From IMG/VR virus record IMGVR_UViG_3300028840_005768, positions 987 to 64,986 of that record: DNA of 64,000 nucleotides; one strand, 5' to 3'. Made by a program: the position numbers and the translations under genes. Position 1 is the stretch's first letter, and each line of letters begins with the position of its first letter. The DNA is from a virus. The notes beneath the pieces are model-generated. The model was not told the origin of the DNA. It made no database searches and was given only the letters and a program-made list of their open reading frames with translations. Of this stretch, positions 36,042-42,285 are shown in pieces.

Positions 36042-36268
36042 TGGACCTTGATTTGACCGTCCTCGACGGCAATACCGGCCGCCTCCAAGGTTTCCTGGTC
36101 TTCGTTATCCAGGGATGTGGTCACCAAAACACCACAGCTCCCAGAGAAGTAGGCGACCATGATTCGGCGCCCTGGCAACTCCAGGAAGATGTCAACGTCA
36201 TCATCGCTGTTCTCGATGGAGACGTGGATCGGGGTGTCTTCATGTGGTTTCGTTGCGAATCTAGCCAT
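36038..36268 (-). CDS. hypothetical acidic protein
   Basis: ORF track. Confidence 0.55.
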   Translation of the reverse strand: MARFATKPHEDTPIHVSIENSDDDVDIFLELPGRRIMVAYFSGSCGVLVTTSLDNEDQETLEAAGIAVEDGQIKVQ

Positions 36269-37280
36269 TGTCAGTAGCTCCCTTTCGATCGAGGTAATCA
36301 GCAGAAACAGACTTGAGAATCATGCGTCCTTGCAGAACGTCGCTCCATTGCTCCTGCAATGGCGTAATGACGATGCCTTCTCGCCCCTTGAACTTGCAGC
36401 GGATCTGACCCGTCGTTGTCACCGTGGTCGGGCCGTGTGTATACTCTTCGACCAGGTCGGGTGAGAAGGGGCCTTCGTAGAAAAGAGGAACGGTGGGAAT
36501 CTCTTGACATTCATCAACCAGTTCCGCCCAGTCGAGGTACTCGCCACCGATACTGATGTCGAAGATGCGGTAGCCGAGCCCGCCGTAGTCCATGTCTTGG
36601 ATGCCTGGTCCGAAGATTTCACCGAACACGACCACCGGCTCCCCGCCTGCGCTCAGCATGCGAATGAGATCCCGAAGCTGATCATCTTCGAGCGGCTTCC
36701 AGTAACGGCACACCCTGCCGCGGGCATCATGCTGCTTCAACTGGATTCGATGGCTACCAGCGACCCATTCTCCGTCGATGAGGCCGATGCGACTATTCGT
36801 GCCGTGGATCTTCTCGGTGATGCGGACCGGCGTCCCCTCGGGAATGGCCTCAGGATACCGCCAGTAGTGTTGGATGCTGGTGTAGCGGTGGAAGAGCGGG
36901 TGCTCTGGTATTGAGTCGCCAGGGATCTCTGGCGGCTCATACTTCTTTGCGCCATACAGTTGAGTCACGTCCCAACCATCAATGTTGACGACAAATCCGT
37001 ACGACGGGACACCTCGCAGCCGGCAGGCTGCCACCCGACACTGAGTCTTTTCGCCTTCCCACAAGGCATGCTTGAGATATTGCTGTACCCCGAGCCGAGC
37101 AGAGACGTCCGGCGGCAACAGCATATCGGGCGGGAAGTAGGCGACCTTCTCTCCAGGCCGGTGGGTGTCTTTGGGCACGACAACCTGCGTCCCGAGGATC
37201 TTGGCGATCTCCAATCGGTCCGCATTCGGGTGCGGATCGATCTCCTGAATCTCCTGGATCGTGATCGCGATGTCGCTCAT
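36261..37280 (-). CDS. RNA ligase (DRB0094/Rnl2-like) with N-terminal OB domain
   Basis: HPNADRLE.A.I.G..VVV, TEKIHGTN (motif I), FGEIFG, YRIFDI, REGIV, LKSVS.DYL. Confidence 0.9.
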   Translation of the reverse strand: MSDIAITIQEIQEIDPHPNADRLEIAKILGTQVVVPKDTHRPGEKVAYFPPDMLLPPDVSARLGVQQYLKHALWEGEKTQCRVAACRLRGVPSYGFVVNIDGWDVTQLYGAKKYEPPEIPGDSIPEHPLFHRYTSIQHYWRYPEAIPEGTPVRITEKIHGTNSRIGLIDGEWVAGSHRIQLKQHDARGRVCRYWKPLEDDQLRDLIRMLSAGGEPVVVFGEIFGPGIQDMDYGGLGYRIFDISIGGEYLDWAELVDECQEIPTVPLFYEGPFSPDLVEEYTHGPTTVTTTGQIRCKFKGREGIVITPLQEQWSDVLQGRMILKSVSADYLDRKGATDNG

Positions 37281-38299: not shown

Positions 38300-38845
38300 T
38301 TAGAATCCTGGTAGCTGAAGACGAGTTACTTGGGTTACGGGTGATTTGGCAGGTTCAGGCGGGCGGACTATTTCTGGAAGAGCAAATGTCTGTTCTGCGA
38401 TCTGACGCCCACTAAATGCCTTAGGTTTATGGAATAGGCTGAGATCAAATCCGACGTCCTGTTTAGTGATGCGTGGCGCTTTACAAGGGCTTTTCCATTG
38501 AGTTCGATTACAGGCCTCCGCCCACAAGGCTTCAGCGTTCTCTGGAAGTTCAAGCTGTGTACCAAGCTGAATCTTCCAGGATGTTCCAAGTAAGACCCAT
38601 GGCTTATCCCAGCCAGAGCATTGGATCTTGGCGACATAGGGTTGAAGCTTTTCGATGCTGTAGGCATCGCCTTTTACTTCTGCCAAGAGGCATTGATTGA
38701 TGATGAAATCGGGGATGTAGTAATGGAGGTCGAGTTCCTCATATCTCCATTCCCAGCCGAGCAGATCAAAGAGCGCTGCCCAACGTGCCTCTGCTCGACT
38801 GCGGAATTGGATGTTGTGATAGGTGGTAGGAATGCCGTGTTTCAT
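38300..38845 (-). CDS. PD-(D/E)XK-type endonuclease-like protein
   Basis: FRSRAEARWA.LF..LGW.W.YE..YIPDF..AEVKG. Confidence 0.8.
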   Translation of the reverse strand: MKHGIPTTYHNIQFRSRAEARWAALFDLLGWEWRYEELDLHYYIPDFIINQCLLAEVKGDAYSIEKLQPYVAKIQCSGWDKPWVLLGTSWKIQLGTQLELPENAEALWAEACNRTQWKSPCKAPRITKQDVGFDLSLFHKPKAFSGRQIAEQTFALPEIVRPPEPAKSPVTQVTRLQLPGF

Positions 38846-38850
38846 GTGAA

Positions 38851-39680
38851 CCTTGCGTTGACGCGATGGGATTCGATCCGATTAGACGCACTCTGATTTG
38901 ACGAGCGAAGACATAACAAACCGGGATAAGCCTTGTTTCAACCACTCCAGACTCCCAGAGGAACTGGGAGTGGTTGCCTCTCAACGAGAGGTAACCTTGC
39001 GTTGTTTGGATTCGATTCGACCGGACACAACTAGATTCAATGCGACAAGGTCGGACTTAACTTGACCAAATGCACCATGGATGAGTAATCGTTGTAGTTT
39101 TGTTTCAACCACTCCAGACTCCCAGAGAAATCGGGAGTGGTTGCCTCTTAATGAGAGGTAACCTTGCGTTGACGTGACCAGACGCGACCCAATGAGATTT
39201 GACCTGACCAGACACGCCTTGACCTGACAAGACCTAACAAGACCTGACGAGCCCTGTTTCAACCACTCCAGGCTCCTAGAGGAGCTGGGAGTGGTTGCCT
39301 CTCACCTGGGTGAGAGGTAACCTTGCGTTGCTAAGATCCAACCGAATATGACAAGACGAAACTGGGTATGATACGACGCGACAAGACACGATATGACCCG
39401 ATATGACCGGACCAGTTTCAATCACTCCAGGCTCCCAAGGAGCCGGGAGTGGTTGCCTCTCAATGAGAGGTAACCTTGCGTTGCCACAGTGTGACGGGAC
39501 ACAATGAGACCCGACAAGACACAACAAGCACGGACTTAACACGACATGACGGGCTGGGTTCAACCACTCCAGGCTCCCAAAGGAGCCGGGAGTGGTTGCC
39601 TCTCACCTGGGTGAGAGGTAACCTTGCGTTGACAAGATACAACTTGACCGGACCAAACTTGACTTGACCGGACATGATGA
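38851..39680 (-). repeat. array: 5 full 68-74-nt double-hairpin repeats plus 1 partial, alternating with 6 pentamer-periodic tracts (NN-RTY units)
   Basis: repeats 38935-39003, 39102-39170, 39256-39329, 39415-39482, 39558-39630, partial 38851-38859; tracts 75, 98, 85, 85, 75, 50 nt; 74 of 88 in-phase pentamers carry RAY on + (43 GAC). Confidence 0.95.
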
Positions 39681-39688
39681 GTCCCGCC

Positions 39689-40276
39689 TCACGCAGCCTC
39701 TGCGGTGGTCCCTTCCGCCCACTCGAACTTCACCGGGCGGAAGCGACCGTAGTAGCCGTTGTTTCGCGGCCGAAAGCGACCGAGGCCAATGAACTGGCCG
39801 GCTTCAGTAAGCACCTTCTCGAAGATTTCACGAGTCACTGTGTCATCAAGGATGTAGAAGGTGATCGTACCGGCCCACTTGTCGATTTTGGGGAAGCACT
39901 TCTCAACACGGCTTCCGCCACCACGCTGGCCGTTGCTTGGCACGAAGAGCCATTCACCCGGTACATCGGAGGCCTTGATTCCGAGGTCAATGGGTTCGGT
40001 AACCATGACACCGGCCTCAAAGTGCTTGGTGTAGGTCGCCTTCCCCTTGCCGGGGATTTGAAGCCCAAGGAACTTTGCCGCCTCTGAGAGACAGTTTTTG
40101 AGCGCCATGGGCGGAATGATTACGTTGCCCGCTTCGTTGACATGCATTCGCATACGCCAACAGCGGGTCTCATGGTCCTTCGGCAGCTCACGATCGCGGC
40201 GGGGCTCGCTGATGTACTTGGATTGCGAGTACGGCGAATTCGCAGCCGATTCAAGGGTCACAACACAGGTTTGCAT
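39689..40276 (-). CDS. stand-alone RAMP/Cas7-like RNA-binding protein (195 aa)
   Basis: N-terminal beta V.L...SPY.QS, IPPMALKNCL..AA helix, FP.I..W.G.I.F, C-terminal Gly-rich loop AGQFIGLGRFRP.NNGYYGRF; GGAG SD. Confidence 0.75.
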   Translation of the reverse strand: MQTCVVTLESAANSPYSQSKYISEPRRDRELPKDHETRCWRMRMHVNEAGNVIIPPMALKNCLSEAAKFLGLQIPGKGKATYTKHFEAGVMVTEPIDLGIKASDVPGEWLFVPSNGQRGGGSRVEKCFPKIDKWAGTITFYILDDTVTREIFEKVLTEAGQFIGLGRFRPRNNGYYGRFRPVKFEWAEGTTAEAA

Positions 40277-40472: not shown

Positions 40473-41561
40473 TTATTCGATGTCTCTCTTTCTGAAGTAC
40501 CGTGCCTCTTTTGGCACCCCACTGTCCGTTAATTCGCGAAACCGAAAGCTCACCGTCTCACCCACGCGGAAATGCTTCCCCTGAAACTCACTCGGCATGT
40601 CGACGCCTGGATGCCTGGTCGCATGTAGCTTCATGGCATCTGTGGTGAACTCTCGCTCGGCATCCGTAAGCCCAGACAGCTCGAGCCGCTTGCCGCGGAA
40701 GTCGGTGATCAGCGCACCAATCTTGCCAAGGTGCTTTGAACCTTTGTCCGTTTTCCGGCCGGAAGTGAAGCCTGTGATCGTGGCCTCAGCGTCCAGGAAC
40801 GGCTTGTACTTGAGCAGGGTACTGACACGCTTCGGTGTCCACGTTGCCGTGGGACTTCGAACGATGACGCCTTCTCCACCGTGACTCAGGACTTCGTCGA
40901 GGAAGCTTTCCAGAGCCTGCCGGGCGCCAACCTCTGTGTGCGGGAGCATGATCTGCTCATGGACCCGAACAAACTCCCCGTGTACACACTGTTGGAGAAA
41001 CTTCAGCTCGCCTGCAAAGGTGGAGCCACGTTCTACCAGGTCAAACCCAGGCCGCACAGCGATCCGCCGCCGCGCCCATGACATGAACTCTTTGTAGCTC
41101 ACGGCACAGTGGAAGTTGGTGTTCTTGATTTCTCCGTCTGCAAACAGACGTTCAGGATGCGGCGATGAGTAGACGGCATACGTGATCTGATCGAACCGCG
41201 GATCGGGACTGTCTCCCGCACAGATCGACCGGCACGTCTGGAAACGGCCCCGTCCAGCCCACAGCTCGCCGTCTAAGAAGCAGGGCGGCAGATCGTCCAG
41301 GAACCAGTCAGGAGCAATGATCGGGTTCCCATAGCGGCTCCAGAGGCCTGTAGCCGTGGGCTTGATCTTGGCCTTCCGGCCGCCCGTCTTGGGATCCGTG
41401 ACCGACGCCCAGGGGACTTCGACCGTAGGGAGCCCGCGGGAGAGGCCGCCGTCCCAGAAGCATCTGGTCCCGTCGAGCTTCTCACTCAGGAACCAGCCGG
41501 CGATGTTCGATTTCTCAGGATTGAACGTCTTTGCCAGTTGTAGGAATTCACGTCGTGCCAT
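40473..41561 (-). CDS. lig: ATP-dependent DNA ligase
   Basis: SEKLDGTR (KxDG), LDGELW, GEG.IVR, LLKYKP..D.E, OB-fold end. Confidence 0.9.
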   Translation of the reverse strand: MARREFLQLAKTFNPEKSNIAGWFLSEKLDGTRCFWDGGLSRGLPTVEVPWASVTDPKTGGRKAKIKPTATGLWSRYGNPIIAPDWFLDDLPPCFLDGELWAGRGRFQTCRSICAGDSPDPRFDQITYAVYSSPHPERLFADGEIKNTNFHCAVSYKEFMSWARRRIAVRPGFDLVERGSTFAGELKFLQQCVHGEFVRVHEQIMLPHTEVGARQALESFLDEVLSHGGEGVIVRSPTATWTPKRVSTLLKYKPFLDAEATITGFTSGRKTDKGSKHLGKIGALITDFRGKRLELSGLTDAEREFTTDAMKLHATRHPGVDMPSEFQGKHFRVGETVSFRFRELTDSGVPKEARYFRKRDIE

Positions 41562-41649
41562 GGGTACCCTCGTTTCGAAACATGCAGTTGGCTTGTATCT
41601 ATGTGTCTCTGAAAAAGGGTGCTTTTGGTTGGCACAAAACGATATTTTC

Positions 41650-42285
41650 TCATGCGGCCTCTTGGAAACGCTCATAGAGTCGTTTTCGTAGGTGGGAGAC
41701 GTGTTGTTGAGAACACTGAAGACGTTCGCCAATTTCGTGATCCCGATATCCTTGGAGCCGGAGAGAGATGATCTGTTGGTCCAGTGGATCCTCACAACAC
41801 CCCTCAATTTTTTCTAACAAGAAGACCACTTGAAAAGGGTCAGTAAGAGGTGGATCGACAGTGTCTATTGAGACAACATATGGGGGAATACACGTATCGC
41901 TATGTCTTTGTGTCCTTGCGGGAACGGGAATCGTGTTTTCCTCTCTTGCATGGTCATTGATGCTGCAATAGATGCTCTCTCGCAGGAAGCCTGTTGGATT
42001 AGGTTCTTCGATGACATCGGCTAGCGCCAGTTGATTCACCGCTTTGGTCAAAGCTAAGAAGCCCTCACTGATCAGATCGTCGCGTAGAAAATCTATGTAC
42101 GGGTGCTCGTGCAAATAAGCAGCCATTAAAACAATGACAAGAGCCATGTTCCCTTCGATCATCCGCCTCTTGGCATCAGGGTCACCTTGACGAACGCGCA
42201 CGTACAGCGCGTCGTTCTCTTTGCGCGAACAGGGTTGAATCCCGCAGCGAACTGCTTGCTTGGAAATTGGGTTGTGTCGGTTCAT
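41650..42285 (-). CDS. sigma-70-like factor
   Basis: GD.DA...MI..NM.LV (2.1), DL.SEG..AL..AV (2.2), EIG..L.CSQQ.VS.L (4.2). Confidence 0.8.
   Translation of the reverse strand: MNRHNPISKQAVRCGIQPCSRKENDALYVRVRQGDPDAKRRMIEGNMALVIVLMAAYLHEHPYIDFLRDDLISEGFLALTKAVNQLALADVIEEPNPTGFLRESIYCSINDHAREENTIPVPARTQRHSDTCIPPYVVSIDTVDPPLTDPFQVVFLLEKIEGCCEDPLDQQIISLRLQGYRDHEIGERLQCSQQHVSHLRKRLYERFQEAA

Follow-up and report, generated by a model that had tools for sequence, protein, structure and literature searches.

The locus described here lies in a 106,101-bp virus record from IMG/VR (IMGVR_UViG_3300028840_005768) that is rated complete. The window is a stretch of 64,000 nucleotides in this record (positions 987 to 64,986), and coordinates given without a locus name refer to it. 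DNA of the same phage is present in sediment and seawater metagenomes from four studies, with contigs that are identical wherever they cover it. The locus comprises a gene for a 195-residue protein and, on the same strand, six tracts of 5-nt units that begin 8 nt past its stop codon. Five near-identical elements of 66-72 nt, each with two hairpins, separate the tracts, and a nuclease-like gene follows the last one. The original prediction, made from the letters of the DNA, was of an open reading frame with a RAMP-type glycine-rich end followed by same-strand pentamer tracts and five near-identical repeats between them; the reading frame was found as described at 39689..40276, and so were the tracts and the repeats (Table 1).

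Table 1. Features of the vipr locus and its flanking genes, with positions in the window.
Feature	Position	Strand	Description	Evidence
ATP-dependent DNA ligase-like gene	40473..41807		flanks the vipr module	weak Pfam matches
vipr	39689..40276	minus	195-aa minimal RAMP/Cas7-like protein (predicted)	profile match, AF2 model, Foldseek
vrRNA 1 guide tract	39631..39688	minus	11 in-phase NN-GUY units	
Tail 1	39559..39630	minus	72 nt; AACGC AAGGU units, then two hairpins	
vrRNA 2 guide tract	39483..39558	minus	15 units	
Tail 2	39417..39482	minus	66 nt	folding, covariation
vrRNA 3 guide tract	39330..39416	minus	17 units	
Tail 3	39258..39329	minus	72 nt	folding, covariation
vrRNA 4 guide tract	39171..39257	minus	17 units	
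Tail 4	39104..39170	minus	67 nt	folding, covariation
vrRNA 5 guide tract	39004..39103	minus	20 phased units; motif kept in the final 13 (39068-39004)	
Tail 5	38937..39003	minus	67 nt	folding, covariation
vrRNA 6 guide tract	38860..38936	minus	15 units	
Truncated sixth tail	38849..38859	minus	terminal motif AACGCAAGGTT without hairpins; abuts the ATG at 38845	
Candidate accessory (vap-like) gene	38300..38845	minus	181-aa PD-(D/E)xK nuclease-fold protein, directly after the array	
RNA ligase gene	36261..37280		flanks the vipr module	PF09414, E 1e-20

The 195-residue protein ends in GLGRFRPRNNGYYGRF, which includes the glycine-rich segment GLGRFRP..GYYGRF. Its G-loop is G164-L-G-R167-F168-R169-P and its thumb lies around G119-P129. 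A Pfam search with the protein returned no match, and its PHROGs match is a family without a name. This is a large family, with 3540 relatives found by one search and 1240 clusters (50% identity) by another; unnamed proteins from Burkholderia pseudomallei genomes belong to it. We compared a profile of 61 family sequences with the PDB. This comparison revealed a sole match, 36pp_D, the "SUSP1 Vipr protein" (E 1.8e-11), which spans profile positions 34-182, nearly the whole domain. The likeness is detectable by profile only, the 195-residue sequence alone matching SUSP1 Vipr with an E of 0.21.

The AlphaFold (AF2) model of the protein has a pLDDT of 96.2. The top five AFDB clusters returned by Foldseek are X1U2U4, A0A0F9A1L0, A0A661D0E2, A0A2D6XG06 and A0A1F4YLN4, the very five that serve as founding Vipr seeds in the methods of the VIPR discovery preprint. 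The best of them, X1U2U4, matches with an E of 9e-15 and a TM of 0.78/0.84, and the CRISPR RAMPs (Cas7/Csm3) rank after all five. Among PDB folds, type VII Cas7 and Csm3 are the best matches (Foldseek E 1e-7 to 1e-5), with a sequence identity of just 11-17%. Judged from the profile match and the predicted model, the protein is Vipr, a minimal RAMP. The SUSP1 profile match and the five Vipr seeds thus support the stand-alone RAMP that had been proposed, and the AlphaFold model with Foldseek gives the Cas7/Csm3 likeness that had been expected of it.

The RAMPs of class 1 CRISPR systems (type VII Cas7, type III-A Csm3) likewise have an RRM core, a glycine-rich loop and a thumb. They also resemble Vipr in polymerizing along a guide RNA with a fixed step, but the step is 6 nt with five guide bases for class 1 RAMPs and 5 nt with two for Vipr. 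Across the 106-kb genome, searches gave no match to Cas1 (PF01867), in agreement with the absence of cas1 already noted for the window, and none to the Pfam RAMP family (PF03787). No CRISPR-like array is present, since the only spaced-repeat families in the genome are the pentamer array and terminal heptamer repeats, and no second pentamer array was found elsewhere in it. With neither CRISPR repeats nor Cas1, the locus falls outside class 1 CRISPR-Cas, and its likeness to Cas7 and Csm3 is at the level of the fold only.

VIPR (Viral Interference Programmable Repeat) systems are related to CRISPR and entered the literature with preprints of 2026 (bioRxiv 10.64898/2026.04.26.720920,.720927). The vrRNA of these papers is a run of 9-16 pentamers (30 at most) in which GGY is fixed and NN varies, and a conserved, structured 3′ tail comes after it. 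Every unit is bound by one Vipr protomer, and dsDNA is read by the NN string with every third base skipped.

The units of the array were counted in a single phase per tract, read from the tract 3′ end, and this phase is held through every tract. Positions 3-5 are GTC in 43 of the 95 units and RTY in 74, while 21/95 depart from RTY; in tract 5, the first 7 units do not fit the motif. The counts of 43 and 74 reproduce those made earlier, and the total of 95 instead of 88 comes from the choice of boundaries. Information content is 0.04 and 0.02 bit for the two variable positions and reaches 0.78, 0.93 and 1.12 bit for those of the trimer. The ~840-nt array contains 20 minus-strand GTC-N2-GTC pairs versus 12 in the other ~63 kb, which corresponds to an enrichment of about 100-fold over the rest of the strand. 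The NN strings have nothing in common among the six guides or with the guides of related phages. The NN pair varies freely and differs wholly from one related phage to the next, whereas trimer, terminal motif and tail architecture persist. Gene calling placed spurious ORFs across the vrRNA arrays (window 38766..39675).

A VIPR array needs at least 4 adjacent 5-nt units in which the trimer is fixed and NN varies; the tracts here have 11-20. The trimer, G/A-U-C/U, is not the canonical GGY. A GUY trimer is still compatible with membership of VIPR: the discovery paper provides for "a related consensus", and trimers other than the canonical one have been published. Vipr-associated arrays of the types GAC/NN, CAC/NN, WGT/NN and TGH/NN appear in an October 2026 preprint (bioRxiv 10.64898/2026.10.21.760802), where a non-GGY trimer is also found next to a Vipr-fold protein. 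The GAC/NN of that survey is the reverse-complement reading of the NN/GTC observed here.

At the end of five of the six tracts stand a conserved AACGC-AAGG motif and a tail of two adjacent hairpins. The tails fold with z-scores of -3.3 to -7.3 (tail 1: -46.5 kcal/mol, z -6.5), and compensatory changes are found in 9/23 pairs across eight tails, the five of the window and three from relatives. The original prediction had viewed the repeats as handles, within a reading that is supported as a whole. An Rfam search of the tails matched no family, so that no known ribozyme is among them. Terminal AACGC/AAGG-like units end the tracts in all lineages compared. Since GGC-type relatives have this motif in common with the window, the transcribed strand here is the vipr strand. 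In addition, several G.U pairs of the tails fit a minus-strand RNA only, as a plus-strand RNA would have A.C mismatches in their place. The 60%-identical, GTC-type relative L016 has at least five tracts with a single hairpin after each (L016:4560-5260), versus two here; tail architecture therefore varies within the clade.

Instead of being minus-strand guide RNAs, the tracts might act as DNA, in the form of iterons or protein-binding sites, or as plus-strand GAC/NN, and GAC/NN arrays are indeed known in relatives and in print. The published survey is a cluster-level one; for the present array, the terminal motif and the G.U pairs settle the strand. AACGC-AAGG is common to GGY-type relatives of unambiguous strand, plus-strand RNA would break the hairpin G.U pairs, the genes around the array are all on the minus strand, and the array starts right behind the vipr stop codon. 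We regard a DNA-level or plus-strand role as extremely improbable and read the tracts as minus-strand guides. A promoter and terminator scan found nothing on the minus strand; no minus-strand terminator thus separates vipr from the array, in keeping with a probable co-transcription of the two.

Homologues of Vipr with 46-80% identity were located at 33 viral and 6 genome loci. A scan of their neighborhoods showed that same-strand pentamer tracts adjoin the gene in most of these 39 loci. Lineages differ in the middle base of the trimer, which may be G, A or U (relatives L001-L044, 46-80% identical). GGC is the trimer of most related loci and occurs in arrays of relatives that are 55-65% identical, GAC is found with five distinct Vipr proteins and GTT with one. 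The GTC of the window is shared by L037 (80% identical), L001 and L035 (both 70%) and L016. Because relatives this close use GGC, GAC, GTC or GTT, the family provides a comparison set for trimer reading by Vipr. The 70%-identical relative L001 has a single uninterrupted tract of 44 pentamers, 32 of them RTY (L001:4586-4806), which exceeds the "up to 30 repeats" of the structural preprint.

In SUSP1 Vipr, the first two bases of the trimer, G1 and G2, are held by D177, W178 and R138, according to the VIPR preprints. These residues align to R167, F168 and F128 here and are not conserved, which is consistent with a pocket rebuilt for a different trimer. In a set of 23 distinct relatives, with kinship uncontrolled, thumb residue 122 is Ser in 5/6 U-type proteins and Lys or Arg in 16/17 others, and G-loop residues 167-168 are altered in 4/5 A-type proteins. 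In these sequence comparisons, the association of residues 122 and 167-168 with the middle base is suggestive and may be taken as a lead only. The backbone of the Vipr tree is open, and the tree is compatible with a single origin of the U type.

We searched for targets of the six guides. No self-target was found in the phage's own genome, where skips of 0-2 score 60-77% of NN, the level of chance, and the perfect matches at skip 3 come from the array's match to itself. The VIPR paper likewise reports no self-targets. Exact 9-10-unit NNx seeds, a search of limited sensitivity, gave 0-1 matches per guide in IMG/VR, none of them credible; in two such matches (L045, L046) nothing matched beyond the seed. 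In JGI metagenomes, the seed of guide 5 gave 32 matches, about 12 of which fall at the start (5′ end) of antitoxin-like genes, putatively of the Phd/YefM type. Guide 5 fits the starts of these genes (L047, L061, L077 and others, mostly JGI contigs) at 23/26 NN and in codon register, and its 13 canonical units (39004-39068) decode in that register to W-K-K-R-L-A-E-Y-V-R-E-E-Q. However, 18 of the 26 positions are bound to match by construction, the flanks score no better than chance (28/44), the other guides do not converge on those contigs, and tens of such matches are estimated by chance at this collection size. For these reasons, the antitoxin-like genes were rejected as a target of guide 5.

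The missing target and the replaced contact residues could both be explained if the locus encoded a Vipr-family RNP with another reading rule or target (a different skip, or RNA in place of dsDNA), owing to a rebuilt trimer pocket with U at position 2 of the trimer. An NNx target is indeed absent from every collection searched, but those searches relied on exact seeds. In the phage genome, skips of 0-2 did no better than chance and skip 3 recovered the array itself. Moreover, the GGC-type arrays of 55-65%-identical relatives speak against a new rule, as do the thumb and helical bundle, the architecture that sets the one-base skip, which are retained in the predicted model. A different reading rule or target type is improbable in our estimation, and the NNx rule of published VIPR is retained below.

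The protein encoded at 38300..38845 matches the endonuclease family phrog_945. The fold of its model has a modest likeness (VIA Z 5-6.4) to Hjc, VRR-NUC, TnsA and other PD-(D/E)xK nucleases, and residues including E19, D46 and E56-V-K58 are invariant in the alignment of its homologues. These homologues lie directly 3′ of the array in L001, L035/36 and L037/38. The gene order ligase-vipr-array-nuclease is common to the window, L001 and L037. In all four loci (window, L035, L037, L001), the terminal motif of the last vrRNA abuts the start codon of the nuclease gene. The AAGG of AACGCAAGGTT sits 5 nt ahead of the ATG at 38845 and is likely the ribosome-binding site of the nuclease-like gene. At L035:1126-1938, a 270-residue gene call fuses the array with the nuclease gene.

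Nuclease or helicase vap genes have been reported for VIPR types III-V (bioRxiv 10.64898/2026.04.26.720920,.720927), and we give about even odds to 38300..38845 being a vap-type accessory gene of this VIPR. The competing view, to which we assign slightly less than an even chance, is that of a mere neighbor that plays no part in VIPR, for instance a resolvase or a homing-type endonuclease. The co-occurrence covers four related loci, of which just one has other surroundings in its genome; in L001 and L037 it may be inherited, because these are syntenic relatives in the same phage group, and more distant Vipr loci are without a gene of this type. A mere neighbor would fit less well with L035/36, which has solely vipr, the array and the nuclease gene in common with the window, with the terminal motif adjoining the nuclease start codon in 4/4 loci, or with the vap genes of types III-V already in print.

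The closest parallels to the locus as a whole are the type II VIPR systems of Escherichia phage SUSP1 and a Pseudomonas fulva prophage (bioRxiv 10.64898/2026.04.26.720920,.720927, 10.64898/2026.10.15.759431). These are likewise phage-borne and have a lone Vipr RAMP of ~200 residues, vrRNAs made of a pentamer tract and a structured 3′ tail that are arrayed downstream of the gene, hypervariable NN and no self-targets. The locus differs from them in its trimer (GUY versus GGY), in its G-loop (GRFRP versus GDWRP in SUSP1) and thumb (F128 versus SUSP1 R138), in its tail (two adjacent hairpins versus a pseudoknot) and in its neighboring gene (a PD-(D/E)xK nuclease fold versus the DNA-binding Vap1).

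Vipr homology, a stand-alone locus, pentamer units and a structured 3′ tail are all found here, and the locus is very probably a VIPR system of a complete 106-kb uncultivated phage. A marine-sediment phage with a lone Cas7-like protein and six predicted pentamer guide RNAs is thus, in all likelihood, a carrier of VIPR. The guess of a divergent VIPR member in the original prediction is borne out by the family profile, the AFDB seeds and the arrays adjacent to the homologues. The larger claim, of a new candidate non-CRISPR RNA-guided system, is not, as the kind is already described in the 2026 preprints and the locus opens no new category. It does extend VIPR to a large marine-sediment phage and offers a clean natural G-U-C repeat code. 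What makes it interesting is that the trimer middle base switches between G, A and U in close relatives, that the tail has two hairpins and that a nuclease may be coupled to the system.

By homology to the SUSP1 and P. fulva systems, vipr and the array would be co-transcribed from the minus strand, and the transcript would be cut into vrRNAs of ~125-160 nt. Each vrRNA may then be coated by 10-17 Vipr protomers, one per pentamer, with the thumb and G-loop holding G-U-C and the NN pair exposed. One protomer per pentamer, a gripped trimer and a displayed dinucleotide had been proposed from the sequence and are how published VIPR works; by analogy, binding would follow the same scheme at this locus. 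The filament would read dsDNA by the NNx (one-base-skip) rule over ~30-50 bp and, once bound, might repress transcription of a gene of a competing phage, a satellite, a prophage or the host. More speculatively, the PD-(D/E)xK nuclease may be the accessory of this subclade, adding cutting to binding, and may be translated from the AAGG in the terminal motif of the last vrRNA.

Taken jointly, these features may define an undescribed VIPR subclade with a trimer middle base that is lineage-specific and set by the protein, a two-hairpin tail and a PD-(D/E)xK nuclease coupled through a ribosome-binding site inside the last vrRNA, a tentative reading that we consider possible rather than probable. 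If true, the phage-borne VIPR of this subclade would cut instead of silencing, and the nuclease gene at the end of the array may show phage VIPR moving from silencing to cutting. An understanding of how Vipr reads its trimer would permit orthogonal VIPR tools.

Outside the window, the genome contains 7-nt tandem repeats (GGACACC, AGACACC, GGGAGCC) at G000:C1:1-120, 102881-103720 and 106000-106101. They occupy both genome ends and an internal stretch of 0.8 kb, with a CCGGTCGCGGTCCGC element interspersed, and may serve as terminal or packaging repeats or form a further periodic array.
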